64,000 nucleotides of DNA from the NCBI RefSeq assembly GCF_048403405.1, contig NZ_CP183129.1; one strand, 5' to 3'. The position numbers were made by a program, and so were the translations under genes. Below the pieces are notes generated by a model, which worked only from the letters and a program-made list of their open reading frames with translations, searched no databases and was not told the DNA's origin. The stretch is from Escherichia coli (lineage in GTDB: Bacteria > Pseudomonadota > Gammaproteobacteria > Enterobacterales > Enterobacteriaceae). Positions 31,071 to 61,041 of this stretch are shown here, in pieces (position 1 is the first letter of the stretch; the number at the start of each line of letters is the position of its first letter).

Positions 31071-31147
31071 TTACCGTTGAGGTAATGATTATGCGTATCT
31101 GGTTTGATGTCAATAGATATGAGTTAAAAAAATTACCCAACAGGTAA
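31071..31147. promoter_or_regulatory. OL-like operator pair: two perfect TTACC-N5-GGTAA palindromes
   Basis: TTACCGTTGAGGTAA at 31071-31085 and TTACCCAACAGGTAA at 31133-31147, between the repressor terminator and the leftward early genes. Confidence 0.55.
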
Positions 31148-31155
31148 TCTAACAG

Positions 31156-31184
31156 GCAATAAAAAAGCCGCCATGAGGCGGCTT
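31156..31184 (-). terminator. rho-independent terminator downstream of repressor gene
   Basis: aagccgcc-atga-ggcggctt hairpin with a run of A on + strand (U-tract on - strand). Confidence 0.65.
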
Positions 31185-31204
31185 ACTTGCTGAAAACTAT
31201 AGTT

Positions 31205-31789
31205 TTATTGTTTGTTTTTTTCGTTCTGGTTGATGACAAATTCAATGTAACTTTCGATCTTTGCTTTCTCGGTTTCGGGTAACAATGCGTAGCGCGAGCG
31301 GTCATAGTTGATAGTCGCAGGGTCGTGCGGGTGAATCAGTAATTCATAGCCATGACGCCCGAATGCGGATGCAACATTCTCCAGGGTGGAAATGGAAACG
31401 CTGACCTCATTGTTTAACAGGCGGCTGATTGTCACCTGGGCGACGCCGGATGCGCGGTGTAGTTTTCCCTGCGTTGAAAGGTCGCGGCTTTCGCTCATCC
31501 AGCGTTCCAGGTTGTGAGCAGCCAGCTGACCTATATCACTCGGGCCGACAGGCTGAAAACCTTCCTGAGAAAGCGAGCGATCGATATCAAGCCAGTTACG
31601 GGGTTTATTGGCGGCAGCTTCAATTTTTCGCGCAACCTGGTCGCCGATAACCTTCTTGCCAAGAGCCCAGCGGTTTACCAGATTTGCCTGAGTTCCAAGT
31701 TTTTCTGCCATCCGCGTCTGAACACCATTGAATTCACGGTCGATCAAGTCGTTGAGATTTTGCCTGCGGACGTCCTGGATACTTTTCAT
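31205..31789 (-). CDS. prophage repressor candidate, tandem HTH (XRE-type), no LexA-like peptidase domain
   Basis: 194-aa ORF divergent from cro-like gene; two HTH-like segments (TRMAEKLGTQANLVNRWALGKK and ASGVAQVTISRLLNNE); no Ser-Lys autocleavage domain recognisable. Confidence 0.65.
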   Translation of the reverse strand: MKSIQDVRRQNLNDLIDREFNGVQTRMAEKLGTQANLVNRWALGKKVIGDQVARKIEAAANKPRNWLDIDRSLSQEGFQPVGPSDIGQLAAHNLERWMSESRDLSTQGKLHRASGVAQVTISRLLNNEVSVSISTLENVASAFGRHGYELLIHPHDPATINYDRSRYALLPETEKAKIESYIEFVINQNEKNKQ

Positions 31790-31844
31790 TTTCTGGAAAA
31801 TCGCCTCATATATGAATCAGTAGATGATTCAATTTAAAGCAATA

Positions 31845-31908
31845 TTACCCAACAGGTAAATGCACCTCATAGGTAACTATCCTTGATTTTTGTTACCTTA
31901 TGGGTGAA
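31845..31908. promoter_or_regulatory. OR-like operator cluster: one perfect and two imperfect TTACC-N5-GGTAA sites
   Basis: TTACCCAACAGGTAA 31845-31859 (identical 15-mer to OL site), gCACCTCATAGGTAA 31862-31876, TTACCTTATGGGTgA 31894-31908, between repressor and cro-like starts. Confidence 0.55.
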
Positions 31909-31943
31909 TATTTATTATCTGAAATAAATATCAGGCAATAGCT

Positions 31944-32174
31944 ATGAGCGATAACGGACATTTCGATTTCAAAAAGCACTGGCTTGCACTTACTCCGGAC
32001 GAGCGTGAAGCCTTCGCACAGGAAGCCGGAACGACGAGTCACTATATCCAGACTCACTTAACAGGTAAGCGCAAAATGCCAGGTAAGGTATTGATGGATG
32101 GGCTTTTTAAAGCCTGTAAAACAAGACAATGGCTGCGCTCAAAAGCAGAACTGGCATACTTCTTCTACTCATGA
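31944..32174 (+). CDS. Cro-like DNA-binding protein
   Basis: 76-aa ORF divergent from repressor across the operator cluster. Confidence 0.6.
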   Translation: MSDNGHFDFKKHWLALTPDEREAFAQEAGTTSHYIQTHLTGKRKMPGKVLMDGLFKACKTRQWLRSKAELAYFFYS

Positions 32175-32196
32175 TATCCAGCTACAACCCTCTGTA

Positions 32197-32220
32197 GACC
32201 GCCACCCGGCGGTCTTTTCA
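32197..32220 (+). terminator. rho-independent terminator after cro-like gene (tR1-like position)
   Basis: gaccgcc-accc-ggcggtc followed by ttttca; imperfect operator gTACCTCAAAGGTAA follows at 32230-32244. Confidence 0.6.
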
Positions 32221-32340
32221 TATCTATTCGTACCTCAAAGGTAATAAAAAACCAAATCTGGTTGATCAAATTTTCCAATTGTGCAAAAATAGCCAATATC
32301 AATAACAAAAAGGTGCGGAAAAATTGAAGATAGTAACCAG

Positions 32341-32536
32341 AATGGAGGCCGCAAAAGCCGGGTTAAATCGCTATTTCACAGGAAAGCGGTGCCGTCACGG
32401 CCATCTCTCTGAAAGGTATGTTCTGAACGGAACATGTGTTGAATGTGCAATGAATAGCGCCAACCGCCATCGTAATGAATTTGCTTGTGCACTAAAGAGT
32501 GCAAGAGGGGAAACCTATGGCAAGCAGCTGGATTAA
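32341..32536 (+). CDS. small zinc-binding protein in cII-like position
   Basis: About 65 aa from ATG 32341 with CRHGH...CVEC cysteines; between cro-like and O-like genes. Confidence 0.4.
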
Positions 32537-33347
32537 GGTTGAAGTTATCACTCCTGATAAACCTGAAATTTTTCAGATAGCAGAAATTCTGGGTATTGAT
32601 CCAGATGCTGTTCTTGGAAAGCTGGTTCGTATATGGGCATGGGCTGACCAGCAAACAATAGACGGTAACGCTGGCAGCGTTACAAAAGGAGTACTTGATA
32701 GACTCGCTTTTATTACAGGATTTGCTGACGCCCTCATTAGCGTCGGATGGCTTGCTTATCATGACGGCAAACTAATTCTTCCAAACTTTGAGCGACACAA
32801 TGGAGAATCATCGAAAAAACGTGCACTTACGAATAGAAGAGTGGCAGAGCATCGAAAACGAGTAACGCAAAAAGTAACGCCAACAGCGTTACAAAAGGAG
32901 TTACCAGAGGAAGAGGAAGAGGAAGATATATATAAAACCCCACACATAGCGCACGTGCGCGAGAGTGCTCCGACCAGTGAGTCGAGTGGTACGCCGTTGC
33001 AGGCAGCAGAACCTGCATCCCTGGATGGCCTGAGTGAACCCATCGGGAAATTTCCGATGACCGATGGCTGGCATCCGTCGCCGGATTTTCGACGGCGTGC
33101 TGCGCTGTGGGGAACGGCCCTGCCGGAACCGGAATTTACACCTGCTGAACTTGCTGCATTCCGGGATTACTGGATGGCTGAGGGCAAAGTGTTCACGCAG
33201 GTTCAGTGGGAACAAAAATTCGCCAGGCACGTAAATCATATCAGGGGAAAATCAAAAAACGCCGGGAAAAGCGATGAGCTTGACTGGAATAACACTGACT
33301 GGATAGAAGGGGTGTGGGATGAAATCAACTCCAGAACTTCTCAATGA
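32517..33347 (+). CDS. replication initiation protein (lambda O-like position)
   Basis: 276 aa from ATG 32517; acidic linker EEEEEEDIY; immediately upstream of and overlapping a clear lambda P homolog. Confidence 0.55.
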
Positions 33348-34095
33348 GTACGATCGCTTACGTGAGCATGGTGTTGCTGTGCATGAAGAGCGGCGTGACA
33401 GCAATGGCAAAAAGGAGCAGGTCGCTAGAATTTTCAATGAACTATTTGTCCAGTTACAGGCTGCATTTCCCGCAAGCGTTTCGACCATAAGGGAGCAGAA
33501 CAAACTTAATGAATTCCGTAAGCAATGGATGCTTGCGTTTCTGGAGAATGGGATCACAACAATGGAACAGGTTAACGCTGGTATGCGCCACGCCCGCGCC
33601 AGTGAGTCTCCGTTCTGGCCGTCGCCAGGGCAATTTATCAAGTGGTGTAAAGACAGCAAGATGGTTCTTGGCGTCACCATTGACGATGTGATGGCGGAGT
33701 TTCACCGGTACAGCAAGGAAAAAAGTTTATATCCTGGTGGTCCCGAAAGATTCCCGTGGCGGCATCCGGTTATGTACTGGGTCGTATGTGATACCCGCCG
33801 TGCAATGTATCAGCGCCAGCTTAGCGAGATTGAAGTTGAGAAACACGCGCGCAGGCTGCTCGATGATTGGGCGAAAAAGGTGGCTTCCGGGCAGCAGATA
33901 CCCGATCCGGTGATCAGCATACAGGCAAAGCCAGAACCCATGAGTACGCCTCCGGACACAGGGAGAGACGTTTACCACCCGCCAGGGCGAAGTTTCGGGT
34001 GCATGCCTAACGCCGCCACCCTTGGGGGAATAACACCGGCTCAGTGGCTGATGGAGGAATACAGGCGGGGAAAGGCGGCAGGATTTATCAAGTAA
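33319..34095 (+). CDS. replication protein P-like helicase loader
   Basis: Long collinear similarity to lambda P as recalled ([14 protein letters not shown]...[37 protein letters not shown]). Confidence 0.85.
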
Positions 34096-34132
34096 TACCA
34101 GCGCGATAGCGCATTTTTTTACGCCTTGATAA

Positions 34133-34209
34133 TTACCTGCAGGGTAACAAAATATTCTAAACTCTATTGATTTCGTGTCTTATGTGGTTTTTAATTACCT
34201 CAGAGGTAA
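34133..34209. promoter_or_regulatory. two perfect TTACC-N5-GGTAA palindromes upstream of the 34213 gene
   Basis: TTACCTGCAGGGTAA 34133-34147 and TTACCTCAGAGGTAA 34195-34209; the second overlaps the RBS; ATGTGGTT motif at 34181-34188. Confidence 0.5.
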
Positions 34210-34212
34210 ATC

Positions 34213-34557
34213 ATGAGAAAACAGATACAGGCTCTTGGTCGACTCAAAACAGGCCAGATGAACAAAACAGAATCTGCGTATTGCCAGCACCTTGAGCTGC
34301 GTAAACGTGCAGGGGAAATCGCCTGGTATCGATTCGAGGGTATCAAGCTGCGGTTAGCTGACAACACGTTCTATACGCCCGATTTTGCTGTGATGCTCGC
34401 CACCGGCGAGATGGAACTGCACGAAGTGAAAGGTTTCTGGACCGACGACGCTAGGGTGAAAACCAAAGTCGCCGCAGATCAGTATCCGTTCCGAATCATC
34501 GGGGTAACGGTTAAACCAAAGAAAGCAGGTGGTGGCTGGAACATCGAAGAGTTCTGA
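34213..34557 (+). CDS. hypothetical phage protein (DUF1064-like, possible small nuclease)
   Basis: 114-aa ORF; resemblance to a conserved lambdoid small-protein family recalled from memory, unverified. Confidence 0.5.
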   Translation: MRKQIQALGRLKTGQMNKTESAYCQHLELRKRAGEIAWYRFEGIKLRLADNTFYTPDFAVMLATGEMELHEVKGFWTDDARVKTKVAADQYPFRIIGVTVKPKKAGGGWNIEEF

Positions 34558-34609
34558 ATCGACGATCTTTTTAGTTATCAATGTAATCAATAAGTTATGT
34601 GGATAAGCG

Positions 34610-35239
34610 ATGGTAAAGATGGAAAGTAATATCAAAGGGTTAGTTGCCGCCGGGCATGAGATGGCTTCGGAACTGAAAGCTGAATGTGGTGCCGTTGATA
34701 TGCGTAGTGTGGCAAAGCTGCTCAGCGATTTGGCAACGCAACTGGAAGTGCAACTGGTGCGTGCTAATGCGCTGGCCGAAGACCAACAGAGAGCGATTGA
34801 GTCAATTAAGCAGGCTGATTCGGCTGTTAAGTTGGCACACAAGAAGTTTTCGGAGCTGGCAGCGGAGAATGCGGCACTGAAGGCTGCGCACCCTCAACCA
34901 TTCGGACCTGAGATGATGAAGGCTCTTGATGCGTATGAGAAGTATCAGGATGAAGTGCCGGAGACTGGGATGCTCAATGCATTTTTCATCTTGCGCGACA
35001 GTATCCGTGTTGACACCCCAGCCACCGATGCTTTCCTGGCTGAAGTGCGGGCGCAGGGCGTGGATGCTGCTATAGAAGCTGCAAAAAATCTGGTGGCCCA
35101 AGAATATGAGTATAAGGATTTCAAAGCGGCGCAGAGTGATTGCTGTATGCACCCTGGTTCAGATCTGGTAGGGAAGGTTGAAATGACTGAGTGGTTAGTT
35201 GACTTTGCTGCCCAGCTTCGCAAAGGAGGCAACCAGTGA
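34610..35239 (+). CDS. hypothetical phage protein
   Basis: 209-aa ORF, coiled-coil-like Ala/Glu-rich N-terminus. Confidence 0.5.
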   Translation: MVKMESNIKGLVAAGHEMASELKAECGAVDMRSVAKLLSDLATQLEVQLVRANALAEDQQRAIESIKQADSAVKLAHKKFSELAAENAALKAAHPQPFGPEMMKALDAYEKYQDEVPETGMLNAFFILRDSIRVDTPATDAFLAEVRAQGVDAAIEAAKNLVAQEYEYKDFKAAQSDCCMHPGSDLVGKVEMTEWLVDFAAQLRKGGNQ

Positions 35240-35763
35240 GCAAGATTGACTATCAGGCACTGCGTGAAAAGGCAGAGAAAGCAACGTGTGGTGTGTGGTC
35301 GCTCGAATATGGAGAGGGACGATTTGATGGTGATGATGCGCTAATTCATCGTGAAGTTGCTGGATATATTCCCATTTGCAGAATTGAAGGAGCGCATCCT
35401 GAAAGCGGTTTCGATGAAGATTTCCAAACTGAACAGCAGGCCAATGCTGAATTCATCGCCGCAGCCAATCCGGCTACTGTGCTGGCGCTTCTGGATGAAC
35501 GGGAAAGAAACCAGCAATACATCAAACGCCGCGACCAGGAGAACGAGGATATTGCGCTAACGGTAGGGAAGCTGCGCGTTGAGCTGGAAGCCGCAGAGAA
35601 GCGCATAGCAGAACTGGAAGCGCGGGAAATACTGCTCCCTGAACGTAGCAGCATGCTTCATCGAACAGATTTTCACGATGATTACCAAACGGTAATGGCA
35701 TACAAAGTTTCTGAAGTCATCGATGCAATCCGCGCTACTGGCATTCGCATCAAAGGAGAGTGA
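35236..35763 (+). CDS. Ea22-like family protein
   Basis: 175-aa ORF beginning MSKIDYQALREKAEKATCG, as in Ea22-like proteins of E. coli prophages (memory-based). Confidence 0.55.
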   Translation: MSKIDYQALREKAEKATCGVWSLEYGEGRFDGDDALIHREVAGYIPICRIEGAHPESGFDEDFQTEQQANAEFIAAANPATVLALLDERERNQQYIKRRDQENEDIALTVGKLRVELEAAEKRIAELEAREILLPERSSMLHRTDFHDDYQTVMAYKVSEVIDAIRATGIRIKGE

Positions 35764-35765
35764 CG

Positions 35766-36121
35766 TGGAAATAAATCCAGAAGATGAGTTAAGCAATATC
35801 GTTTTATTTCCGGTAAAAGAGGATGACCCACGTAATCAGGTTAATTTTCTTTATGAGCCATCGGAAAGACCATACTGCCATCACGCTTCTGTCCGGGTTG
35901 ACGAAAAAGAGCGTCAGGTCCGCTGTAAAATCTGCGGTGCAGTTGTGGAGCCGTTTGACTGGATGCTCTCTGTGGCGAAAAGAGAAACCAGACTGGCAGA
36001 TGATGTAAGGCTATTGCGCCAGGAGGAACAGGAAAGGCGGAAAAATATAGAAAAGTTAATTCAGATTGAGCGTAACGCGAAAGCGCGGATACGCAGGGCG
36101 ACAAAATCCAGAACTGAATAA
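35766..36121 (+). CDS. hypothetical zinc-ribbon protein
   Basis: ORF with CHH...CKICG motif; GTG start assumed. Confidence 0.4.
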
Positions 36122-36216
36122 TTAAATTTAGCACTGTTAAAAATTTTATCCTTAACCGGAGGGATTTCTGCACCCTCAGAACATCAGGAGGCCGCCCGAA
36201 AGGGCGGTAATGAAAA

Positions 36217-36981
36217 ATGACTGAATTAACAAAAGAGCAATTAATCGAAGAAGCCAAATTAAAAATAGCGATTGCGAAATGCCACACGAATTCAGGGATG
36301 GCACGGGTAGAGGGTGAGTTATTCAAAATTGCACTGGCATCGCTGGAAGCAGATCCAGTTGCTTATATTTTCAAACATCCGGCCGGGAAATTATTCTGGG
36401 CTTTGACGGATGAAAGCAATAAAGAGCAATCGGACGTTATTCCTGTTTATGCCGCCCCTCCAGTGCCAGTAGTACCTGAAGAAAAACCAATGCCTAACCC
36501 TCTTAAAATGTACGCGGTCGATGCTGTTGCCGCTATTGCAGAGGTGAGAGGCTGGAACGCCTGCCGCGCCGCCATGCTTCAGGCCGAACCTGTAAGTAAT
36601 AGTGATGAGTTACCGCTGGACTATCTGCAAGGACACAAAGACGGCCTGGAGTGGGCTGCACAATTGGCAGAAGCCAATCATCCGCAAACAGGTGACTGGT
36701 TGTACGACGACCCAATCGATCTTGCCAGGGCGATTCGCAAAGGTCCTGATATGCCTACTGTTCAGGCTGGCAACTATCCGGTAACTCCGGATGGTTGGAT
36801 AAGCTGTAGTGAGCGAATGCCCGCTCAAGATGATTGGATTTTAATTTATTCAAAGCACGGCGAGTATATGGCAGGACAGGTACAAGGGGAATACGTGGAG
36901 TTGAGCGACGGCACTTTATCGTGGTTAGGGAACGCCTTGTACTGGATGCCTCTACCGGAACCGCCGCAGGAGGTTAATTGA
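36217..36981 (+). CDS. hypothetical phage protein with DUF551-like C-terminus
   Basis: 254-aa ORF; C-terminal W...LYWMPLPEPP signature seen in DUF551 prophage proteins (memory-based). Confidence 0.55.
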   Translation: MTELTKEQLIEEAKLKIAIAKCHTNSGMARVEGELFKIALASLEADPVAYIFKHPAGKLFWALTDESNKEQSDVIPVYAAPPVPVVPEEKPMPNPLKMYAVDAVAAIAEVRGWNACRAAMLQAEPVSNSDELPLDYLQGHKDGLEWAAQLAEANHPQTGDWLYDDPIDLARAIRKGPDMPTVQAGNYPVTPDGWISCSERMPAQDDWILIYSKHGEYMAGQVQGEYVELSDGTLSWLGNALYWMPLPEPPQEVN

Positions 36982-37265
36982 TGGTCTCCTTCGCGAAATA
37001 TACGATTATTGACTGGATAGCATTCATTCAGGTTTTGCTCATCTGGTTTTATATGGCTTACAGGAGTGGACAGTGGATTGTCAGTGTAGCCTGTAGCAAT
37101 GGATGGCGTTGGTGGAACCGAAAGAATAAAAAAGCGCTGGCCTTGGCTTCGTTTTACGAAGCATTCAATCTTAACAGTCTTCAGCCTGGTTCTGTCGTTG
37201 TAGTCACCACTCAAAGCGGCATGACGATACAAATTCACAAGCCAAAGGAGGAAGGTCGTGGCTAA
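36981..37265 (+). CDS. small membrane protein
   Basis: Hydrophobic segment IIDWIAFIQVLLIWFYMAY; about 94 aa. Confidence 0.4.
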   Translation: MVSFAKYTIIDWIAFIQVLLIWFYMAYRSGQWIVSVACSNGWRWWNRKNKKALALASFYEAFNLNSLQPGSVVVVTTQSGMTIQIHKPKEEGRG

Positions 37266-37539
37266 CCTGCAACTTGCCGTTAAAGGTGAATACTTCGATG
37301 CCATGATTCGCGGGGAGAAAACGGAAGAGTATCGCCTGTGTAATGACTACTGGAATAAGCGAATTATGTTCCGCGAGTATGACCGCCTGATTATCACAAA
37401 GGGATATCAGAAGCGCGACGATTCCAGCCGCAGAATTGACGTCCCGTATGACGGATATGAAATCAAGACAATCACACATCCGCACTTCGGCGATAAACCG
37501 GTAAAGGTGTTCGCTATAAAGGTGAATATTGATGGCTAA
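37258..37539 (+). CDS. ASCH-domain-like protein
   Basis: 93-aa ORF MANLQLAVKGEYFDAMIRGEKTEEYR typical ASCH N-terminus (memory-based). Confidence 0.55.
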   Translation: MANLQLAVKGEYFDAMIRGEKTEEYRLCNDYWNKRIMFREYDRLIITKGYQKRDDSSRRIDVPYDGYEIKTITHPHFGDKPVKVFAIKVNIDG

Positions 37540-37870
37540 ATCAGCAGCAGAGCGCAAAGCCGCGCAGCGCGCTCGGCAGTCCGCCGCCGGTGAGCGCAAA
37601 ATTGAACTGGTGCTGGATAAGCAGGAGCAGGAAATGCTGGCGCGGAACTGCGCCGCCCGGCGCCCTGGTCACGATCCCTATGAAATGGCCGAGTACATCG
37701 CGCTGCTGATCCGCCAGGATGATGCACGTGTGCGCGGGCGTATAAAATCGATCAGTAGAAAACGTTGCGGTAAGTGCGGCGAGAGAGTTCCAGTTAATTC
37801 ATGTCCGTGTAATGGTGACTCGCAATGCTGGGTGACTAAAGGCTGGCATGAAACGAAATTAATAGTGTGA
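37529..37870 (+). CDS. hypothetical protein with C-terminal Cys cluster
   Basis: 113-aa ORF; CGKCGERVPVNSCPCNGDSQC; stop codon lies inside the TGTGACATGTCACG palindrome. Confidence 0.45.
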   Translation: MMAKSAAERKAAQRARQSAAGERKIELVLDKQEQEMLARNCAARRPGHDPYEMAEYIALLIRQDDARVRGRIKSISRKRCGKCGERVPVNSCPCNGDSQCWVTKGWHETKLIV

Positions 37871-37920
37871 CATGTCACGAGTAGATTATGCATGATGAAT
37901 TTGATGGGTTTTGAATACTG

Positions 37921-37946
37921 CCGCCAACTATGGCGGCTTTATTTTG
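37921..37946 (+). terminator. rho-independent terminator before terminase operon
   Basis: ccgcca-acta-tggcgg followed by ctttatttt. Confidence 0.6.
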
Positions 37947-37956
37947 CATGGTACTA

Positions 37957-37971
37957 TTACCACAACGGTAA
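37957..37971. promoter_or_regulatory. perfect TTACC-N5-GGTAA palindrome upstream of terS
   Basis: TTACCACAACGGTAA 18 bp upstream of the terS ATG. Confidence 0.5.
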
Positions 37972-37988
37972 CTATTACCACGGTGGTT

Positions 37989-38585
37989 ATGATGCCTGCT
38001 GAACCTAAAACCTATAAACGCAAATCAACGCAATTTAAGCCGCTCACAGCAATGCAGGAGGCTTATTGCCAGTCATACATCAAAACGCCTGAAAACCAGA
38101 CTCAGGCAGCGATTAACGCAGGATTCTCCCCAAATACAGCGGCAGTTAAAGCCAGTGTCATGATGCGCGATGAACGCATTCAAAAACGGATTGCCGAGTT
38201 GATGGAGGAGCGCAACAAACGAATGCGCGTCAGTGCTGATTACGTTCTCATGCGCCTGGTGGAGATCGACCAGATGGACGTGATCGATATCCTCAACGAC
38301 GATGGGAGCCTTAAACCAATCCGCGAGTGGCCGAAAATCTGGCGCACTACGCTTAGTGGCTTTGATCTGTCATCGACCATCATGAACATGAACGAGGATT
38401 CGATAGAGACAATCCTCAAAAAAATTAAATGGCCTGACAAGGTGAAGAACCTCGAACTGATTGGTAAGCACGTCGACGTCAACGCATTCAAAGAACGCCT
38501 GGATGTTAATGTGAATGTGACAATTGCTGATCGCATAGCGGCAGCCAGGAAGCGACTCAAAGAACGTCAGGATGGTAATCAGTGA
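37989..38585 (+). CDS. terminase small subunit
   Basis: About 198 aa immediately upstream of and overlapping terminase large subunit; basic N-terminus, HTH-like segment. Confidence 0.7.
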   Translation: MMPAEPKTYKRKSTQFKPLTAMQEAYCQSYIKTPENQTQAAINAGFSPNTAAVKASVMMRDERIQKRIAELMEERNKRMRVSADYVLMRLVEIDQMDVIDILNDDGSLKPIREWPKIWRTTLSGFDLSSTIMNMNEDSIETILKKIKWPDKVKNLELIGKHVDVNAFKERLDVNVNVTIADRIAAARKRLKERQDGNQ

Positions 38586-40057: not shown

Positions 40058-40108
40058 TCCGCTGGTGGGGATAATGTCGTTGATATCCTCTGATGAGGAT
40101 AAAACAAA

Positions 40109-41101: not shown

Positions 41102-41116
41102 TTACCTGAAGGGTAA
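41102..41116. promoter_or_regulatory. perfect TTACC-N5-GGTAA palindrome upstream of head gene cluster
   Basis: TTACCTGAAGGGTAA; ATGTGGTT motif at 41160-41167. Confidence 0.5.
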
Positions 41117-41205
41117 TAATTGTGCGTTAAATGTCAACCACCTACGATAAATAAATCATATGTGGTTAAATTGGTAATAATTTAATTGCGTACGGAGTCA
41201 TTGAT

Positions 41206-53169: not shown

Positions 53170-56100
53170 TGCCGATATATGAACAGGATCCTAAAGAGTT
53201 GCTTGGCGAGGATATTCAGCAAATAGCAGCACCTGATGACAGTAATTTCTATATGGAAACACCTTCTTTGCTTTCTGCTGTGAACCCATTTACCAGTGAT
53301 CAACGCGTTCAAAGGTCTAGACAAGCAGCATTTCGTATAGATAACACGCTGGGTAGCTTTATTGCCAGTGCTCCTTTCAGTCAGTTTGACAGGGTTGAAG
53401 GATATAACCCATTTGATAACGATGCAGCAGATATTAAAGGCTATGAAGATTTTGCAGATTCGTTTATCAACTCCGGTTCGCATGAAGAAACAATGGCAAT
53501 TAAACATCGAATCGATCAGCAGAGAGCTGACATGGAATACAATTCAGGCTTGGGATTTGCTGGTACAGTCTCTTCTGTAGCAATGAGATTAGCAGATCCA
53601 TTCAATGCGATTTCTATGTTTATTCCGTTCGGCGCTGTCGTTCGTGGCGGTCGTATTGCAGAAACAGCCGGACGTTTTGCTTTAGCCAATGCTGCTGGCA
53701 GTGTTGCTTCAGAGGCCGCATTGCAGGCCACTCAGGAAGCTCGCTCACCGATGGAGAGCGTATCGAACGTTGTTGTTGATGCTCTCGTTGGTGGGATCCT
53801 TGGTGCTGGTGCACAGCTACTTGCTGGACCTAGCGCGCGCGAGGCAGTGGTTAACTCAGTAGGTAATCATTTGCGAGGTATGGATTCTCCTCAAAGCATT
53901 GGTGCAGCTCAGGTTTTCAATACCACACTCGATCAGGAACAGCTTGCTGGACTTGGACTTGCTAACAAAACGTTGAGTGTCACTCCTGCTGGCCGCTTGG
54001 CGCAATCACCATCTCTTGTTTCCCGTCAGATTAACCAGCAGCTTGCCGAAAATAACTATTTCTTCGCCAAAAATGATGAGGGGTTGGCTACGTTTACGGC
54101 AGTCGAGACTAAGATTAAGCAATACGACGCCATGCTTTATAAGCAGATGGAAGCTACTCGTGATGCTTACCAGCAGTACAGCAAATCTGTCAGCGCCCGC
54201 GGCGTGAAGAGGATGAACTTTATTGATTTCAATGAAGCTGTTGGCATGGCTATGCGCCGTGGTGATCAGAGTGATATTCCTGAGGTTTCACAAGCAGCCG
54301 CCAGAATCCGCCCCATTTTTGAGACCACAAAAGCCCGTATGCAGGAATTGGGGATCCTTCCTGAGGATATCGATGTCGTGACGACGAAGAGTTATCTTCC
54401 CCGCATTTATAAGTTCGATAAGATACTTTCCGACCGCACTGAATTCAGAGGGCGAATTGCCAACTGGATACAAGGGATTAGTGCCAAAGGTGCTGACAAA
54501 GCAGGTCAGCGAATTGAAAAGATAAATTCATTGCTAAAAACTGCAGAGGAATCAGCACCGCGCGCTGATGCTCTCGCTAGTGAAATCGCTGAAGCGGAGA
54601 AATGGTCTGGTAAAAAAATTCTACTCATGGAAGAACTGGATAAACGAAATAAGCTTATATCTCAGGAGACTGACACACAGGCGCGTCTTACAAGAATAGA
54701 AAAAGAGTTGGCCGAGACTTCATCAGAAAAACTTCAGGCAAGAATGATGAAAGAAAGCTCTGACCTTAAAACACGCCTTGATGATATAGCGCAGGCAAAG
54801 AGTGAGCTTCCTGTCTATCAGCGCCATATGGAGTTGCTGGATAATCCACGGAAATATCGTTCTGAGCTTCGCCGACTGCAAAAACGGGCAAATTCAACCA
54901 CAAGGCTGAATGCAAGCCGCGAGCGAGCACTGAAGCAGATGGAGCCTCTATCCCGAGAGGAAGCAGAGGACGCTGCTGACGAGATCGTGAATAAAATAAT
55001 AGGCGCACCTTCCGGGCTTGTACCAGCCGATATTATCCCAGAGAGACTCGTTGGTCGGGCTGGTTTCACTAAAAGCCGAACGCTGCTTATTCCTGATGAG
55101 CGTATAGAAGATTTTCTTGAATCAGATGTTAACTACATCATGGAAAGTTATCTCCGGCAGGTGGCACCAGAAATTGAGCTGACTGCGCAGTTTGGCCGTA
55201 AAGATATGGGGGAGCAAATCCGTCAGGTTAGTGAGGAATATACCCGGCTAATAAAAGAGGCTAAAACACCTAAACGACGTGCAGCTCTTGAGAAGCAACG
55301 GGAGGCTGATATTAGGGATATTACGGCTATGCGTGACCGACTGCTTGGTACTTACGGCGCACCTCAAGATCCACGCAGTTTCTTTGTTCGTGCCGGGCGA
55401 GTTGCTAGGAATATTAACTTCCTCCGTTTGCTTGGTGGAATGACCGTCTCCGCTGCAACTGATCTGATGCGACCGATGATGCAGCATGGCCTGAGAAAAT
55501 CTCTCGGACCAATGGTAAGCATGCTTAAAAATATGGACTCAGTGAAAATTGCAACCAGGGATTTGCGAGAAATGGCAGTTGGGCTTGATTATGTCCTGTC
55601 TACGCGCACAAAGGCTATAGCGGATCTTACTGACCCCTATAGCCGGAGAAGCGCCGCTGAGCGAGGTCTGAACTGGATGACGCAGAAATTCGGTAACTGG
55701 ACGCTGATGAATCAGTGGAACAGCGCACTTAAATCATGGTCTGGGATGATAGTGCAGTCGAGGATACTTGACGCGGCTCGCCAAGTTTCTGCTGGTGGCA
55801 CGCTCTCCAAAAGTGAAATGCGGAAGATGGCACAGGTCGGCATCAATGAAGATGTTCTGCGCCGAATCGGGGAGCAATTCGGGAAGCACGGAGAGGATAT
55901 GGACGGGCTGTTAACCGGGCATAGTCATCTGTGGGATGACCGTTTCGCTAGAGAGATTTTCCAGTCTGCAGTGCTGAAAGATGTAGACTCAGTGATTGTA
56001 ACGCCTGGCGTAGGTGATACACCGCTGTTTTTTAGTAAAGAAGGCTGGAAGATGATCACGCAGTTCAAAACGTTTATCTTCGCACAGCATAACAGGGTGC

Positions 56101-56558
56101 TAGTATCTGGTATCCAGCAGGGCGATGCTGCATTCTATCTTGGTGCGCTTGGCACGATTGCGCTTGGCTCAATGGTCTATATGATGAAACAGAAGTTAAG
56201 CGGTCGCGATATCGACTACAGCTGGAATAACCTTGTGAAAGAGGGGATCGACCGGGGCGGAATGCTTGGCTGGCTCTCTGAGCCGCTGAATACCGTTGAG
56301 AACATAAGCGGCGGTAGGTTTGGTCTTGGCGCGATGTTTGGTGCGCCTCCGGTATCAAGGTTTCAGAGTCGTAATGCTATTGGTGCTTTACTTGGTCCTA
56401 CCTTTGATCTTGGCGGTGATGCCGCGACGGTTGCAAATGGTGTACTTAACGGAGAATTTGACAGCCAGCAAACCCACGCTGTCCGTAAAATGCTACCTTT
56501 TCAGAATCTGTGGGCGATATCACCATTACTAAATAAAGTTGAAGAGCAGATGAAATAG
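53169..56558 (+). CDS. internal virion/ejection protein (gp16-like)
   Basis: 1129-aa ORF, largest core protein, precedes tailspike region. Confidence 0.5.
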   Translation: MPIYEQDPKELLGEDIQQIAAPDDSNFYMETPSLLSAVNPFTSDQRVQRSRQAAFRIDNTLGSFIASAPFSQFDRVEGYNPFDNDAADIKGYEDFADSFINSGSHEETMAIKHRIDQQRADMEYNSGLGFAGTVSSVAMRLADPFNAISMFIPFGAVVRGGRIAETAGRFALANAAGSVASEAALQATQEARSPMESVSNVVVDALVGGILGAGAQLLAGPSAREAVVNSVGNHLRGMDSPQSIGAAQVFNTTLDQEQLAGLGLANKTLSVTPAGRLAQSPSLVSRQINQQLAENNYFFAKNDEGLATFTAVETKIKQYDAMLYKQMEATRDAYQQYSKSVSARGVKRMNFIDFNEAVGMAMRRGDQSDIPEVSQAAARIRPIFETTKARMQELGILPEDIDVVTTKSYLPRIYKFDKILSDRTEFRGRIANWIQGISAKGADKAGQRIEKINSLLKTAEESAPRADALASEIAEAEKWSGKKILLMEELDKRNKLISQETDTQARLTRIEKELAETSSEKLQARMMKESSDLKTRLDDIAQAKSELPVYQRHMELLDNPRKYRSELRRLQKRANSTTRLNASRERALKQMEPLSREEAEDAADEIVNKIIGAPSGLVPADIIPERLVGRAGFTKSRTLLIPDERIEDFLESDVNYIMESYLRQVAPEIELTAQFGRKDMGEQIRQVSEEYTRLIKEAKTPKRRAALEKQREADIRDITAMRDRLLGTYGAPQDPRSFFVRAGRVARNINFLRLLGGMTVSAATDLMRPMMQHGLRKSLGPMVSMLKNMDSVKIATRDLREMAVGLDYVLSTRTKAIADLTDPYSRRSAAERGLNWMTQKFGNWTLMNQWNSALKSWSGMIVQSRILDAARQVSAGGTLSKSEMRKMAQVGINEDVLRRIGEQFGKHGEDMDGLLTGHSHLWDDRFAREIFQSAVLKDVDSVIVTPGVGDTPLFFSKEGWKMITQFKTFIFAQHNRVLVSGIQQGDAAFYLGALGTIALGSMVYMMKQKLSGRDIDYSWNNLVKEGIDRGGMLGWLSEPLNTVENISGGRFGLGAMFGAPPVSRFQSRNAIGALLGPTFDLGGDAATVANGVLNGEFDSQQTHAVRKMLPFQNLWAISPLLNKVEEQMK

Positions 56559-56559
56559 G

Positions 56560-57411
56560 ATGAAAAAAATAAATTTGTTTTTTGGCATAGTGCTTTCAAT
56601 AGTCTCTGTAAATCCTACAGCTGCCAGTTCATTGCAATGCAATAAGGATAACTTTGATGCATGCAAAACGTGCGAACAATTATCAAAGGCTATCGACTTA
56701 AAAGAACCTAATCGTGGCGATTACTATAGAGGGGCTTTATGGAATGGGCTTTACGCCTCTTATGTAATTAATTGCCCTGTGGTTGCAGAGAAGTTACTGA
56801 GCCATGGTGCTATACCATCATATGGCGGATATATGGGGTCTATGGGGGCGGTTCTGACAGGAAAATGGCCTCATAACAATGAATCAATAAATCTTTCATG
56901 GGCAGATTTGCTTATAAAACATGGATTTGATGTTAATAGGCATACGGGGAATTATAAATCAGCTACTGAAGTATGGGCTATAGATAAAAAACAGATTGAA
57001 TATAAGTCAGTTTTTGACAAGTTAATTCAATCCAGCGAAGTAAAACCACTCGATCCTTCAAGAAATTTAGAATGGTGTGCGTCTGAAGGGTATCGCTCAG
57101 TTGTCGTTTATTCCCTTAACTCATGTATAGAAAATGCTATAAAACGTTTGGATGACGGTGTTTCTTCAGCGTCTGATATTTCATCAGCAGCCGTAAATTC
57201 CTGTACTAGCGATGTAGAAAATTTCAATAAGCATTTGGCATGCAAAGCAGCTGTTAAAGAAAACTCTGATAAAGAGAGAAGCAACGTTTACCAGTTATTA
57301 ACCAGTGATAGTCAAATGAATAAAAATGTTATTGATATGCTGAAGGAAAGAAATATTGAAACGGTTCTTGAATTTAGAGCTGAAAATCGATCAGCGAAAA
57401 CTGCACAGTGA
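56560..57411 (+). CDS. secreted moron protein, low GC, possible ankyrin-like repeats
   Basis: 283-aa ORF with signal peptide MKKINLFFGIVLSIVSVNPTAAS; markedly AT-rich relative to flanking late genes; weak ankyrin-like segments (VAEKLLSHGA, ADLLIKHGFDVN). Confidence 0.55.
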   Translation: MKKINLFFGIVLSIVSVNPTAASSLQCNKDNFDACKTCEQLSKAIDLKEPNRGDYYRGALWNGLYASYVINCPVVAEKLLSHGAIPSYGGYMGSMGAVLTGKWPHNNESINLSWADLLIKHGFDVNRHTGNYKSATEVWAIDKKQIEYKSVFDKLIQSSEVKPLDPSRNLEWCASEGYRSVVVYSLNSCIENAIKRLDDGVSSASDISSAAVNSCTSDVENFNKHLACKAAVKENSDKERSNVYQLLTSDSQMNKNVIDMLKERNIETVLEFRAENRSAKTAQ

Positions 57412-57418
57412 TCAAACA

Positions 57419-57442
57419 GGCCGCTTTCGCGGCCTTGTTTTT
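57419..57442. terminator. terminator hairpin (ggccgctttcgcggcc + T-run), copy 1
   Basis: ggccgctttcgcggcc followed by ttgttttt; identical hairpin recurs at 60670. Confidence 0.7.
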
Positions 57443-57601
57443 AACGAATGCCACCGCCGCCAGGGCGGGAATCCGCAGAACGCCCACCGCAGCGGGAGCC
57501 GTCAGCGGCAGTATCGCTGTCGTGCTGACAACGACCGGCAAAGGCCTGAGTTGAAGCTACCAGAGACAACAAAACGAACAGTGCAGCAAATGCTTTTTTC
57601 A
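57441..57601 (-). CDS. small secreted peptide (hypothetical)
   Basis: 53-aa ORF MKKAFAALFVLLSLVASTQA... with signal peptide; short, weak RBS. Confidence 0.3.
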
Positions 57602-57673
57602 TTGTGAAATTTCCATCTATAAGCCACCTCAATGTGGCGTCAATGAGTGTAGCACTGACTTTTGTTTCGTCCA

Positions 57674-57697
57674 CAAAAAAGCCCGCAGCGCGGGCTT
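57674..57697 (-). terminator. rho-independent terminator after small membrane protein gene
   Basis: agcccgc-agc-gcgggct hairpin with A-run on + strand (U-tract on - strand). Confidence 0.6.
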
Positions 57698-57929
57698 ACT
57701 TTTCTTCAGGTTTGTTGTCTTCAGATTTCTTCTTGATGCTTGGTTTTTGTCTAAGACCGAAAATACCAGCCACTGCAACAACTGTACCGATCACTGTGCC
57801 AGCTAGAACTTCATGACCTGTTAAACCTAATAATGTTGCACAAGCTACTGTAAAAATAGTTGCACTCAGGCCAAACCACTGCCCACGTTTATCTCTATTA
57901 ATAGCCCCGTCAAGTGCCTTTTCCTCCAT
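57696..57929 (-). CDS. small two-TM membrane protein
   Basis: 77-aa ORF; hydrophobic segments WFGLSATIFTVACATLLGL and VIGTVVAVAGIFGL; Lys-rich C-terminus. Confidence 0.45.
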   Translation of the reverse strand: MEEKALDGAINRDKRGQWFGLSATIFTVACATLLGLTGHEVLAGTVIGTVVAVAGIFGLRQKPSIKKKSEDNKPEEK

Positions 57930-58169
57930 TTTCTGGCGGTGAGCAAACTCCTTCTCCGTCAGCTGGAAGATGCGTTCGGGGGCATCAGGTAAAATATCCT
58001 GATACCCGCGAAGCAGATAGGGGGAGGAAGCGGACCCTGAAACGCATGGTGAGCGACAACTATCTCCTGAATTTCAGGGCGATCAAGAACTCTTGTGAAG
58101 GCATCTGGGTGTTGAATGATCTCGTTACTTAGCCCTTCCTCAACTTCCTCGAACTCAGTTTCTTCGTTA

Positions 58170-58496
58170 TCACTTGGTTGCCCAATAGATTTTTGCATAT
58201 TTGTCGAAGGACATTCCTTTAGCTTCTGGTTTTCCTCTTGCATTTGAGTTTTTCCCTGTCACTATTGCCCATTTTCCGCCAGCAGGCGCTGCAATTTTTT
58301 TTCCGTTCTTTACTATATATTCAGCATAAACACGATTTTCTGACCGTCTGAGATCGTCTCCGACCATATTCATGTCTCTTGATATAACTTTGACGACAGA
58401 GTCTCGGTTTAAAGCCTTGGCATAGTTGGAGCCAGGAACGATACCCAAAGGGGTGCCAGACTCTATAGCCAGCTCCTTGACATATCTTCTGCTCAT
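58170..58496 (-). CDS. hypothetical protein (possible small DNA-binding protein)
   Basis: 108-aa ORF from ATG 58496 (MSRRYVKELAIESG...); a perfect TTACC-N5-GGTAA site lies 22 bp upstream. Confidence 0.4.
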   Translation of the reverse strand: MSRRYVKELAIESGTPLGIVPGSNYAKALNRDSVVKVISRDMNMVGDDLRRSENRVYAEYIVKNGKKIAAPAGGKWAIVTGKNSNARGKPEAKGMSFDKYAKIYWATK

Positions 58497-58517
58497 ATGA
58501 ACCTCAACCAATCGACT

Positions 58518-58532
58518 TTACCAATCGGGTAA
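58518..58532. promoter_or_regulatory. perfect TTACC-N5-GGTAA palindrome
   Basis: TTACCAATCGGGTAA upstream of the 58496 gene. Confidence 0.5.
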
Positions 58533-58617
58533 TTTTAAACATGAGTATAATGCTTTTAACTGCAACGAGTGTAAACAATTATTGATAATTGTAGGCACAT
58601 CCCTGTGCCGCCGCCCG

Positions 58618-59310
58618 TCAGAAGAACCCTGCTTTGTCGTTGATGTACTCCGCGTGCGTCTGGATATCACGCAGGCATTTGCTCACACCGACGATGTAGC
58701 AGAACATGGTGGTCAACTCCGCCGCCGCGCCCGATACGTCGTGCCCGTCTTCCTGTAACTGGTTTAGCAGATTCATCAGCAGTGAGTTCTCCGTCAGGCC
58801 GAGAACACCAGACGGCGAATGAATCAGGCTGCGGTAGCCGGGCTTCAGTGGGGCGCTGTAGGTTTTGTTCTCTACCTTCATTGCCTGCATCACTGCTGAT
58901 GCTGTGGCGTTGGCTACCTGGTCGGCAACCATCTTTATGCGTTCTTCCTGCGGGAGCGAGTTTTTAATGTAACTTCCGGTGCGGCGGATCTGAGGAAGAA
59001 CCTCACCTGTAACCCATTCAAGAAATCTGAATGCTCTCGTTCCCTCAGTCATTGCCTCTTTGCAACGCAGAATAAGGATGTAGAGACCTGATTCTGAAAC
59101 GATGGATAGTTCTTGTATTCCACCAGGGGTCTGTATTGAATACAGCCCCTTTTTGTTCCAGCCTTTTTTATCAAGTTTTCTCGCTTGTGTAACATCAATA
59201 TTCAAAGCATTGCACACATCTTTGGTGACAAACCAAGGTTCTCCGTCAATCATGAACATACGGATCTGGCAGGATGACTCAAAGGAAAAGATGGAAGGTT
59301 TGGTATTCAT
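58618..59310 (-). CDS. antirepressor, Bro-N domain plus C-terminal antirepressor domain
   Basis: N-terminus MNTKPSIFSFESSCQIRMFMIDGEPWFVTKDVCNALNI is a Bro-N/KilA-N-type signature; C-terminal domain has a paralog at 60693-60950. Confidence 0.7.
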   Translation of the reverse strand: MNTKPSIFSFESSCQIRMFMIDGEPWFVTKDVCNALNIDVTQARKLDKKGWNKKGLYSIQTPGGIQELSIVSESGLYILILRCKEAMTEGTRAFRFLEWVTGEVLPQIRRTGSYIKNSLPQEERIKMVADQVANATASAVMQAMKVENKTYSAPLKPGYRSLIHSPSGVLGLTENSLLMNLLNQLQEDGHDVSGAAAELTTMFCYIVGVSKCLRDIQTHAEYINDKAGFF

Positions 59311-59577
59311 AGCGATCACCTTTGTAGTTAGGTTAATCACCACCGCTGAGACCAATCAGATGGTGGTGAACTGTGCAGAGTTGGTCTTACCGGCTACAAA
59401 GGAACCCGGCGCACCTTTCGGTGCCCCCACACAGCCCACCATAGAATAGGTGCGCTTTACACATAAAAAAACCGCTTATGCGGCATATGTGCCTCTGTAG
59501 TAATCCGGGAGACCAATCCCGGCACTGGATTTTGCCAGTGCCCGATTACTATGGCACAAGAGGAGTGCAATGTAAAT

Positions 59578-59592
59578 TTACCGAAAAGGTAA
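59578..59592. promoter_or_regulatory. perfect TTACC-N5-GGTAA palindrome about 270 bp upstream of antirepressor
   Basis: TTACCGAAAAGGTAA. Confidence 0.5.
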
Positions 59593-59753
59593 TAATAAAT
59601 GCATAACTCACGTTATTTCAACCCTATATGGTTTGATTTATCCCATTTCAGAAAATACCTGCCTATTTTTTTGCCAGTATGCGTATACTTTCGATAGAAT
59701 GTTTACCCTAGAGGTAGTTGGGGGTGCCCGTGAACACGAAGAGAGCTACAGTA

Positions 59754-60173
59754 ATGCAGCATTTGAGGAAATCAGAAAAAAATAAAGACCATGAAATATT
59801 GAGTAAGGCCATTGTTCGGGCTTCCAATAATACTGTTATACCTCATGCTGAAGAGTCTGGACAGAAATTTCTTATTCGGTATTTCACTGAAAATAGTGCA
59901 GTTGAGGAGATTTTAAAACATCAGGGAGGGGAATTTAAATGTGGAAAACTGGCAGATTATGTTCGTCGTGAAACGTCTGAACAAGAAGTATATTATGCTG
60001 ATATTAATCATAAGTCAGGTGTGAAAATTGTAATAGGCTATTACACAACTCCCAAAAATGTTATGCATGAGGTCCCAAAGATGTCCGTCGAGAAATCTCA
60101 TGCAATCTCGCGCAGGATGTTTGCACGCACTGCCGAAGATATGGCTCAGGAGCTCTACGACGATGCTGAATAA
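59754..60173 (+). CDS. hypothetical protein, candidate partner of YafO-like toxin
   Basis: About 140 aa from ATG 59754; stop overlaps the start of the downstream gene (ATGCTGAATAA); low GC. Confidence 0.5.
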   Translation: MQHLRKSEKNKDHEILSKAIVRASNNTVIPHAEESGQKFLIRYFTENSAVEEILKHQGGEFKCGKLADYVRRETSEQEVYYADINHKSGVKIVIGYYTTPKNVMHEVPKMSVEKSHAISRRMFARTAEDMAQELYDDAE

Positions 60174-60668
60174 ATTCCAGGGGTTGGTTCACCCTGGAAT
60201 TTTTGGGAAGGACCCTGAGCTAATACCTATCAAAAACGCGTTCATAGATCACTGGCGCTACGGTCATCATAAGGATTTCGGAAAGGACACTCTGTTTCGG
60301 GATCCACCGAAAGAAATGCTGGAATATCACATACGCCACGTTCACGTAAACATCGGAAACTATACTGACAAGTTTGGTGAGAGCGGTACGGACAATGCTG
60401 GAAAAACTGGGCGTCTGGGAAGAAAGACAAGACCACTAACAAGCATAAAAAGATCCCAACCAGTGACGTGTATGTGATTTATCTGGTCACATCTGAACGC
60501 CATGCCTTCCTTCTGGATTATTGGGATGAACCAGCACATAAGACAGTAGAAATTGACGAGCAGAAGCAAAAATTAGTTGTCGAGTGTGACAGAATTTTGC
60601 GGCTGAAAAAGTTAGAATCCATGCCGCGCGATGCTAGTTTGTGGGACCCAGAATTTTACGACTGTTAA
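60163..60668 (+). pseudogene. YafO-like toxin gene interrupted by a frameshift (or sequencing error)
   Basis: N-terminal part in one frame (to 60477: ...FGKDTLFRDPPKEMLEYHIRHVHV) and C-terminal part in another (60381-60668: ...VYVIYLVTSERHAFLLDYWDEPAHK) both resemble E. coli YafO as I recall it; frames overlap 60381-60477. Confidence 0.45.
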
Positions 60669-60669
60669 T

Positions 60670-60694
60670 GGCCGCTTTCGCGGCCTTTAAATTT
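60670..60694. terminator. terminator hairpin (ggccgctttcgcggcc), copy 2
   Basis: Identical 16-bp hairpin to 57419-57434, followed by tttaaattt. Confidence 0.65.
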
Positions 60695-60950
60695 ACCGGG
60701 TTTGTTTTCGTAATTGTTCGGCACAATAGTCGAGATGTGTTTGCAGATCCCGCATAGACATCTGTGAGCTGGTGACGTAGTTAATCAGTGCAGTCAGTTC
60801 GGCAAGTGGGCCATCGACATTAAATCCATCCTTATCGAGATCCCGGAGTAATTTCATCAAGTGCGATCCCTCCACCAGTGACCTGACGCCTCCCGGCGTG
60901 TGAATCCTTTCGGTAAATCCGTCTTCCAGTGGATAGTGATACTGCTGCAT
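60693..60950 (-). CDS. free-standing antirepressor C-terminal-domain paralog
   Basis: About 85 aa from internal ATG (MQQYHYPLEDG...); shares L..LL..L..DG..V.G..AELT.....Y.......RD.QTH..Y pattern with the C-terminus of the 58618-59310 antirepressor. Confidence 0.5.
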   Translation of the reverse strand: MQQYHYPLEDGFTERIHTPGGVRSLVEGSHLMKLLRDLDKDGFNVDGPLAELTALINYVTSSQMSMRDLQTHLDYCAEQLRKQTR

Positions 60951-61026
60951 CTTATCTTCTCCATGCAATAACTGTATGTTTATACAGTAACAAATAATTT
61001 GTTTGCTATCCAGCACGTTTTGCAAA

Positions 61027-61041
61027 TTACCTGAAAGGTAA
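61027..61041. promoter_or_regulatory. perfect TTACC-N5-GGTAA palindrome between ant-C paralog and tailspike
   Basis: TTACCTGAAAGGTAA; ATGTGGTT motif at 61074-61081. Confidence 0.5.

Follow-up and report, generated by a model that had tools for sequence, protein, structure and literature searches.

What binds a 15-bp palindrome that recurs throughout an Escherichia coli prophage, and with what effect? The window considered here is a 64,000-nucleotide stretch of contig NZ_CP183129.1 (RefSeq assembly GCF_048403405.1), and an initial annotation of it, made from the letters alone, had drawn attention to copies of TTACC-N5-GGTAA at the transcription-unit boundaries of the prophage. We consider it about 80% probable that the 15-17 bp palindrome (A)TTACC-N5-GGTAA(T) represents the operators of the prophage repressor Rep, placed at nearly every transcription unit; binding by Rep is what we infer from comparative sequence analysis. 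Taken together, the sites are best read as a prophage-wide repression network, in which DNA looping and direct repression of the late operons would both take part.

The pattern search returned exactly the ten perfect sites first reported (starts at 31071, 31133, 31845, 34133, 34195, 37957, 41102, 58518, 59578 and 61027), every one of them inside the prophage. Shuffling the window 100 times with dinucleotide content preserved gave 0.01 sites on average and never more than 1, which bears out the estimate of a chance count well below one. The 25.9 kb of host DNA left of attL in the window contained no perfect site, against 6.8 expected at the density of the prophage (Poisson P ~0.001, hand calculation), so that the proposed enrichment over host DNA holds within the window. 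Intergenic calls for the window were made with a synteny-based gene list, under which 10/10 perfect sites fell in non-coding DNA (7.5% of the prophage part; P ~6e-12), as had been claimed; the 10 sites of phage vB_EcoP_ZX5 (ZX5) are likewise all non-coding (8.6% of its annotated genome; P ~2e-11). Site 61027 falls within the longest open reading frame (ORF), 60693-61073, and is called intergenic because the homologous ant genes of ZX5 and SPC32H start at the position equivalent to 60950. Allowing one mismatch added seven sites, two in host DNA (15388 and 20476, about chance level) and five in the prophage (26049, 31893, 32230, 37975 and 59703). Among the imperfect copies listed earlier, 26049, 31862 (two mismatches) and 32230 were recovered, the one placed at 31894 really starts at 31893, and 37975 and 59703 had been overlooked. 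The same 15-mer, TTACCCAACAGGTAA, does occur at both the OL-like (31133) and OR-like (31845) positions. Perfect sites thus flank the repressor/cro pair, with 31071 and 31133 on one side and 31845 on the other. The early, packaging, head, tailspike, antirepressor and moron units have sites as well, far from the immunity region and as much as 29 kb away from rep; both placements are as first described.

The prophage is 97-98% identical to ZX5, HEMP4, TL-2011b and phiV10 (Uetakevirus), which on sequence comparison makes it an ε15-like podovirus (ε15/phiV10/ZX5/SPC32H type) inserted at guaA and not a lambdoid phage; its attL core is ATTGAGTGGGAATGATT, a sequence quoted in the ZX5 paper (PMC9782041). 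The lambdoid framing of the initial annotation has to be given up accordingly, the repressor being of the SPC32H Rep type. Classical lambdoid CI/Cro features (operators confined to OL and OR, Q control of late genes) were not found, and no Q antiterminator is annotated in the Uetakevirus records examined.

Conservation was assessed across the window and five genomes (ZX5, ε15, SPC32H, Enterobacter phage Tyrion and Klebsiella phage BUCT711). These six members of the genus, from E. coli, Salmonella, Enterobacter and Klebsiella, carry 9-11 perfect copies each at syntenic intergenic positions (SPC32H has 10, in the same places as the window), so the palindrome is indeed conserved in related phages. 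Across 46 syntenic copies, with the consensus A-TTACC-(T/A)(T/A)W(A/T)(A/T)-GGTAA-T, the ten half-site bases are 100% identical, compared with 57% for the 5-bp spacer and 61% for the flanks; conserved half-sites around a free spacer are the sequence signature of a dimeric helix-turn-helix (HTH) site that lacks central base contacts.

The motif had been thought to match no known phage repressor site. The GenBank record of ε15 (AY150271.2) contains seven features labelled “protein_bind / repressor / lysogeny”, all of them ATTACC-N5-GGTAAT (feature 12-27 is annotated minus the leading A), located upstream of terS, gp3/portal and the tailspike gene, downstream of the repressor gene (three) and after the replication gene (one). 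Our scan of ε15 gave 11 perfect copies, the four unannotated ones being two in OR, a second post-replication copy and one before the lysis genes. A 17-bp hyphenated inverted repeat is reportedly described for ε15 by Kropinski et al. (2007). The window has copies at the ε15-annotated terS, gp3/portal, tailspike and post-replication positions, and since that record already marks the same motif at equivalent positions, neither motif nor network is a novelty: by sequence, both motif and dispersal are known at the level of public annotation. No operators are annotated in the phiV10 and ZX5 records, and a full-text literature search for Uetakevirus operators or this motif found nothing relevant beyond the ZX5 paper, which defines no operators.

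Several lines of evidence point to Rep as the binder. Over its full length the window Rep is homologous to SPC32H Rep (PDB 5D50; E 4e-42, residues 1-190); the phiV10 and ZX5 repressors match it at 100% identity, and the Reps of the other compared genomes at 43-78%. Its recognition helix, N36-L-V-N-R-W41, is invariant across the genus alignment and in this matches the invariant half-site. SPC32H Rep is described, in the secondary source PMC9638917, as a tetramer on palindromic DNA whose DNA-binding pairs are drawn from different dimers. When the ZX5 repressor, identical to that of the window, was overexpressed, free phage disappeared and holin and endolysin mRNA fell by >99.9% (PMC9782041). Those features of a Uetakevirus Rep-operator system that lend themselves to in silico testing were all found: the Rep architecture, sites flanking rep (2-3 toward OL, 3 in the rep-cro interval), dispersed copies, and a small antirepressor, putatively LexA-controlled, next to the tailspike gene. 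As a binder, the product of 58170-58511 found no support: proposed earlier as 58170-58496, this protein has no Pfam match, its PHROG family is of unknown function, and no DNA-binding domain is detectable in it.

Outside Uetakevirus, the sole match to Rep in the phage collection was the CI of Pseudomonas phage PseuP_224, a lambdoid siphovirus. This CI shares the N-terminal HTH alone with Rep (39% identity) and, unlike Rep, has an S24/LexA-like C-terminus. As in the window, TTACC/GGTAA half-sites stand on both sides of its repressor gene, where ATTACC-N4-GGTAAT occurs twice downstream and twice upstream of cI (region 10906-11821); unlike in the window, the spacer is N4, sites are limited to the immunity region, and the phage has a Q antiterminator for its late genes. 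A search of the remainder of its 43 kb with 3-6 bp spacers and up to one mismatch gave no copy except one likely chance N5 match. Because the same half-site occurs around cI only, sequence comparison ties the Rep-type HTH family to the TTACC half-site and makes operator dispersal a Uetakevirus trait. In IMG/VR, relatives of Rep are encoded on at least 324 contigs, the best 80 of which carry a 100% identical Rep; no distant relatives suited to a motif covariation analysis were obtained from these best matches, and a word-indexed protein search gave fragments only.

The position of the sites relative to promoters suggests what the binder does. A promoter scan based on consensus matches predicted 24 promoters in 21 kb, three of which have a -10 whose end coincides with an operator's terminal base (31085, 58532 and 59592), a coincidence expected ~0.011 times (P ~2e-7, hand calculation). 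The junctions read AATCAT/TACC at the PL-like promoter, whose -35 TTGACA is kept in 6/6 genomes, TAAAAT/TACC at 58532 and TATTAT/TACC at the promoter of the Bro-N/Ant-like gene; by eye, and below the criteria of the scan, TTGATT-17-TTTAAT/TACC can be read at 34195 and TACTAT/TACC at 37957. A fourth predicted promoter (31890-31918) holds an operator (OR site 3) in its spacer. At the promoters that can be predicted, the operator covers the start, beginning on the last base of the -10, or sits within the spacer; RNA polymerase would be occluded there by bound Rep, and such placement indicates repression and not activation. The genome-wide regulatory network first proposed was right in kind as regards repression, and the activation offered as its alternative is not borne out.

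Spacing between sites is also fixed. The PL and post-replication pairs are 62 bp apart (start to start) in 11/12 cases across the six genomes, the twelfth being 63 bp; neighbouring OR sites are 17 bp and 29-31 bp apart, and the terS pair 18 bp. At gp3/portal a GGTAAT half-site stands in the register of a second operator 62 bp on in 5/6 genomes (61 bp in the window), and at the tailspike gene such a half-site keeps a 50-bp register in 6/6 genomes, one helical turn shorter. This 62-bp/50-bp geometry would suit a tetramer with two DNA-binding pairs clamping both sides of a promoter, and gives a concrete geometry for the two pairs in the SPC32H Rep tetramer structure; the secondary source PMC9986798 likens the tetramerisation domain of that Rep to a DNA-looping domain.

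We propose the following mechanism. Rep, of the two-HTH SPC32H type and reportedly tetrameric, would bind dispersed operators, which stand, singly or in pairs, at the beginning of nearly all transcription units: early-left, early-right, post-cro, post-replication, terminase, head/portal, tailspike, two antirepressor/accessory units, an inserted cassette and, in relatives, lysis. Bound Rep would block RNA polymerase at the promoters, and one tetramer could grip the DNA on either side of a promoter, closing a small loop by way of the 62-bp partner site (or of the half-site at 62/50 bp). In the lysogen a single protein would thus directly silence the whole lytic programme. On induction, the small antirepressor Ant, under LexA control, would dismantle the Rep tetramer and free all units together.

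Some observations weigh against this account. The repressor-site annotation of ε15 may itself be a prediction, the fall in lysis transcripts upon Rep overexpression could be indirect, and the promoters are predicted as consensus matches only. The head and tailspike units have no convincing sigma70 promoter overlapping a full operator; the full operator lies there ~70-80 bp upstream of the likely -10, and occlusion would thus depend on the proposed loop to the half-site. Motif and Rep are both invariant in the genus, which leaves no covariation, so that comparison within the genus does not tell Rep apart from other conserved proteins, the Cro-like protein among them.

That last point also bears on an unlikely alternative, in which the dispersed sites are bound mainly by another conserved protein, for instance the Cro-like protein as a lytic-phase regulator shutting off or timing all units, and Rep acts at rep/cro only. 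The 76-residue Cro-like protein is more conserved than Rep (58-83% identity across the genus) and matches a “transcriptional repressor” PHROG, with no Pfam match, and Cro proteins classically use the operators of the repressor. Its helix TTSHYIQTHL is, however, unrelated to NLVNRW, PseuP_224 ties the TTACC half-site specifically to the Rep-type N-terminal HTH, and the ε15 curators assign the sites to the repressor. Use of the sites by both Rep and the Cro-like protein is possible.

The distance from the -10 at the head and tailspike units also bears on an improbable reading, in which the full site at gp3/portal, tailspike and lysis acts positively or architecturally, as a class-I-type activator site at about -70/-80 or as a bend anchor. 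Sites 41102 and 61027 do lie ~70-80 bp upstream of conserved TAGAAT or AAT-rich -10 candidates that have no good -35, the ε15 record puts IHF sites beside the gp3 and tailspike operators, and phasing of 50 versus 61-62 bp is compatible with face-of-helix dependence. Against it, the conserved GGTAAT half-site sits beside the -10 at the register of a second operator, resembling the repressive 62-bp modules of the PL and post-replication units, Rep overexpression abolishes late (lysis) transcripts (PMC9782041), and late genes need to be silent in the lysogen, where Rep is present. That the palindromes are structural or recombinational elements (hairpins, parts of terminators or mosaic module boundaries) is hardly credible: they do lie at module boundaries, frequently just past terminators, and bound in the window a cassette missing from ZX5, but they form hairpins of little stability (-4 to -5.5 kcal/mol) with no U-tracts or T-runs, which with zero compensatory changes in 46 copies led us to reject an intrinsic terminator or hairpin repeat, it is sequence and not pairing that is conserved while the loop is free to vary, and neither the -10 register nor the 62-bp phasing has a structural rationale.

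A second element lies beside the operators. The ATGTGGTT of the initial annotation turns out to be the 3' portion of a longer conserved element, the 12-mer CCATATRTGGTT (motif 2). This is a part-palindrome with the core ACC-N6-GGT; three copies in Tyrion match its ideal, fully palindromic form TAACC-ATATAT-GGTTA perfectly. It had been described as following three operators at 33-44 bp and leading into GGTAATA. Downstream of 34133, 41102 and 61027 this succession does occur, the gaps measuring 34, 43 and 32 nt; what follows at 34195 is a complete site in place of GGTAATA. In 6/6 genomes the GGTT of motif 2 keeps a distance of exactly 9 nt, counted from its first base, ahead of the proximal half-site in three units (gp3, tailspike and post-replication), and the 28-nt gp3 block around motif 2 and half-site is identical in all six. 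At up to two mismatches 17 copies were found against 8.4 expected, a modest enrichment; an 11-mer form was not enriched. Motif 2 as a -35, -10 or extended -10 element was rejected, with no consistent fit and a position relative to -10 candidates that differs between units, and by eye none of the sites for sigma32, sigma54, sigmaE, CRP, FNR, IHF or DnaA fits consistently.

Motif 2 and the operator share an ACC...GGT core, the spacer of motif 2 being 6 bp, and its reader could be either the middle HTH of Rep or the Cro-like protein. The two HTH domains of Rep (residues 1-72 and 85-150) align in register (hhalign E 1.2e-4, probability 54%), which raises the possibility that the middle domain may read DNA as well. 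The recognition helices of the two domains are similar (NLVNRW and xT[IV][SN]R). A tentative, rather doubtful extension would be a two-layer, genome-wide clamp, in which a Rep tetramer brackets each promoter and a second reader sits on motif 2. Its first layer, the 62-bp/50-bp operator/half-site module, would replace a late activator or antiterminator, its second would be the oriented element CCATATRTGGTT, 9 nt from the proximal half-site, read by the Rep middle HTH, a paralog of the N-terminal one, or by the Cro-like protein, and each unit would carry a composite site. The ε15 record annotates neither motif 2 nor the 62-bp module, and no account of either turned up in the literature searched.

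At the lysis leader, the full operator of ε15 (24704) is reduced in the window to a GGTAAT half-site. Motif 2 forms one arm of a hairpin there (63818-63900; -27.7 kcal/mol, z -3.7) in a region that the ε15 record calls an RNase III site. The tailspike stop has no terminator after it, ahead of this hairpin. The tailspike -10 candidate is bracketed by an 11-bp inverted repeat, CATATGTGGTT / AACCAGATATG (window 61071-61108), which is found in the window and ZX5 and not in ε15, SPC32H, Tyrion or BUCT711.

By sequence, the window system is an orthologue of the Rep-operator system of ε15 and SPC32H. It shares with ε15 the motif, genus, gene order and positions (terS, gp3/portal, tailspike, OL side and post-replication), and differs from it in that its Rep is only 42% identical and that it has extra antirepressor and cassette units with sites of their own. 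Studies of SPC32H (Kim & Ryu 2013; Kim et al. 2016) reportedly deal with the switch and the Ant mechanism, and not with a genome-wide operator set. Compared with the SPC32H Rep-Ant switch (PDB 5D50/5D4Z), the window has a full-length Rep homolog, an Ant that is 87% identical and the same LexA box.

Mycobacteriophage stoperators, to which the sites had been likened, are asymmetric 13-bp elements, present in dozens per genome and oriented with transcription, that stop elongation inside transcribed DNA. Mycobacteriophages L5 and Bxb1 likewise have many repressor sites beyond the immunity region, but those of the window are symmetric, 10-15 in number, strictly intergenic with none in coding DNA, and tied to promoters, and so do not belong to the stoperator class; multiple operators in mycobacteriophages are noted in PMC1934351. 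Similar in part are also P1 C1, Streptomyces φC31 c and IncP KorA/KorB, where, as here, one repressor has operators dispersed over the promoters of a mobile element. The φC31 c sites (conserved inverted repeats) and KorA sites are symmetric, and the P1 C1 site is asymmetric. Proteins and motifs of these systems are unrelated to those of the window, and we know of no counterpart in them of the rigid 62-bp promoter-bracketing module.

The discovery is small, motif and dispersal being already in the public annotation of ε15. Its import is that in a very common type of E. coli prophage the lytic programme would be held off by one repressor at 10-15 dispersed operators, with no lambda-style cascade. 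The map may be used to annotate prophages of the phiV10/ZX5/TL-2011b type, whose records bear no operators, and in phiV10 reporter-phage engineering. Residual interest attaches to the 62-bp module, to motif 2, and to a Rep that diverged outside its recognition helix, with helix, operator, LexA box and Ant all conserved. Coordinates are collected in Table 1.

Table 1. Putative operators, motif 2 copies, predicted promoters and associated genes of the prophage, in window coordinates
Feature	Position	Strand	Remarks
attL core ATTGAGTGGGAATGATT	25899..25915	+	guaA 3' end, left end of prophage; exact match
Imperfect copy TTACCTTAAAGGTAT	26049..26063	.	upstream of int; 1 mismatch, kept in 6/6 genomes
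PL-proximal operator	31071..31085	.	covers -10 end and start site of leftward early promoter
Predicted early-left promoter (PL-like)	31085..31113	-	TTGACA-17-AATCAT, 10/12; -10 ends on terminal base of operator
Motif 2, weak copy	31094-31104		
PL-distal operator	31133..31147	.	62 bp from proximal; between rep terminator (31165-31184) and PL -35
rep, 194-aa repressor	31205..31789	-	N-terminal HTH, second HTH domain, C-terminal Ant-binding/tetramerisation tail
OR site 1, perfect	31845..31859		
OR site 2, GCACC..GGTAA, 2 mismatches	31862..31876	.	17 bp from site 1
Predicted rightward early promoter	31890-31918	+	TTGTTA-17-TATTAT
OR site 3, TTACC..GGTGA, 1 mismatch	31893..31907	.	in -35/spacer of rightward early promoter
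cro-like gene, 76 aa	31944..32174	+	divergent from rep; phrog_35 “transcriptional repressor”
Degenerate operator GTACC..GGTAA	32230..32244	.	after cro terminator; 7 nt before motif 2 and TTGATC -35
Motif 2 copy (CCAAATCTGGTT)	32252..32263	+	after degenerate operator 32230
Distal post-replication operator	34133..34147	.	ε15 equivalent 35906-35922, annotated repressor site
Motif 2 copy (TCTTATGTGGTT)	34178..34189	+	spacer of post-replication promoter
Proximal post-replication operator	34195..34209	.	62 bp from distal; fused to -10-like TTTAAT
terS-upstream operator	37957..37971	.	after terminator 37920-37937; ε15 equivalent 12-27, annotated repressor site
Second terS-upstream site, 1 mismatch	37975..37989	.	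18 bp further; ends 2 nt ahead of terS ATG
gp3/portal (head operon) upstream operator	41102..41116	.	ε15 equivalent 2931-2947, annotated repressor site
Motif 2 (TCATATGTGGTT) + 5 nt + half-site GGTAAT	41156..41178	+	motif 2 itself 41156-41167
Operator, leftward unit of 58170-58511 protein	58518..58532	.	predicted promoter 58559..58532 (-), TTAAAA-16-TAAAAT
Larger antirepressor, Bro-N + Ant-like domain	58618-59355	-	own operator-fused promoter (predicted)
Operator, leftward unit of Bro-N/Ant-like antirepressor	59578..59592	.	predicted promoter 59621..59592 (-), TTGAAA-18-TATTAT, 10/12
Motif 2 copy	59622-59633		
1-mismatch operator, inserted cassette	59703..59717	.	just past predicted promoter 59671-59700 (+), TTGCCA-18-TAGAAT, 10/12
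ant, small antirepressor	60693..60950	-	87% identical to SPC32H Ant
LexA box AACTGTATGTTTATACAGTA	60970..60989	.	upstream of ant; 17/20 consensus match
Operator, ant-tailspike intergenic region	61027..61041	.	ε15 equivalent 19895-19911, annotated repressor site
Motif 2 (CCATATGTGGTT) + 5 nt + GGTAAT half-site	61070..61097	+	overlaps conserved TAGAAT -10; motif 2 61070-61081
Lysis-leader half-site GGTAAT + motif 2 copy (CCGTAAATGGTT)	63809..63832	+	3' part is an arm of a long RNA hairpin
Motif 2 copy, lysis leader	63821-63832		

Individual sites differ in detail. The copy at 26049-26063 is ambiguous and probably not a Rep operator, because it sits in a larger inverted repeat (GACGGTA..TACCGTC) and itself coincides with the annotated integrase-binding site of ε15 (26873-26882). 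The equivalent of OR site 2 is a perfect site in ε15, SPC32H and BUCT711, and the DUF1064 gene (ATG 34213) has its Shine-Dalgarno GAGG within site 34195-34209.

In the induction arm, LexA boxes equivalent to that of the window occur in SPC32H (19956) and ε15 (19839), and we take control of ant by LexA to be implied by the box. The Ants of SPC32H and the window are 87% identical while the Reps are 42% identical, a disparity that weakens Ant as the setter of immunity specificity. The C-terminal domain of the larger antirepressor is 40% identical to the small Ant.

The inserted cassette (~1 kb, window ~59640-60690), missing from ZX5, contains the ORFs 59718-60173 and 60058-60477, of unknown function, and its predicted promoter is directly followed by the one-mismatch operator.

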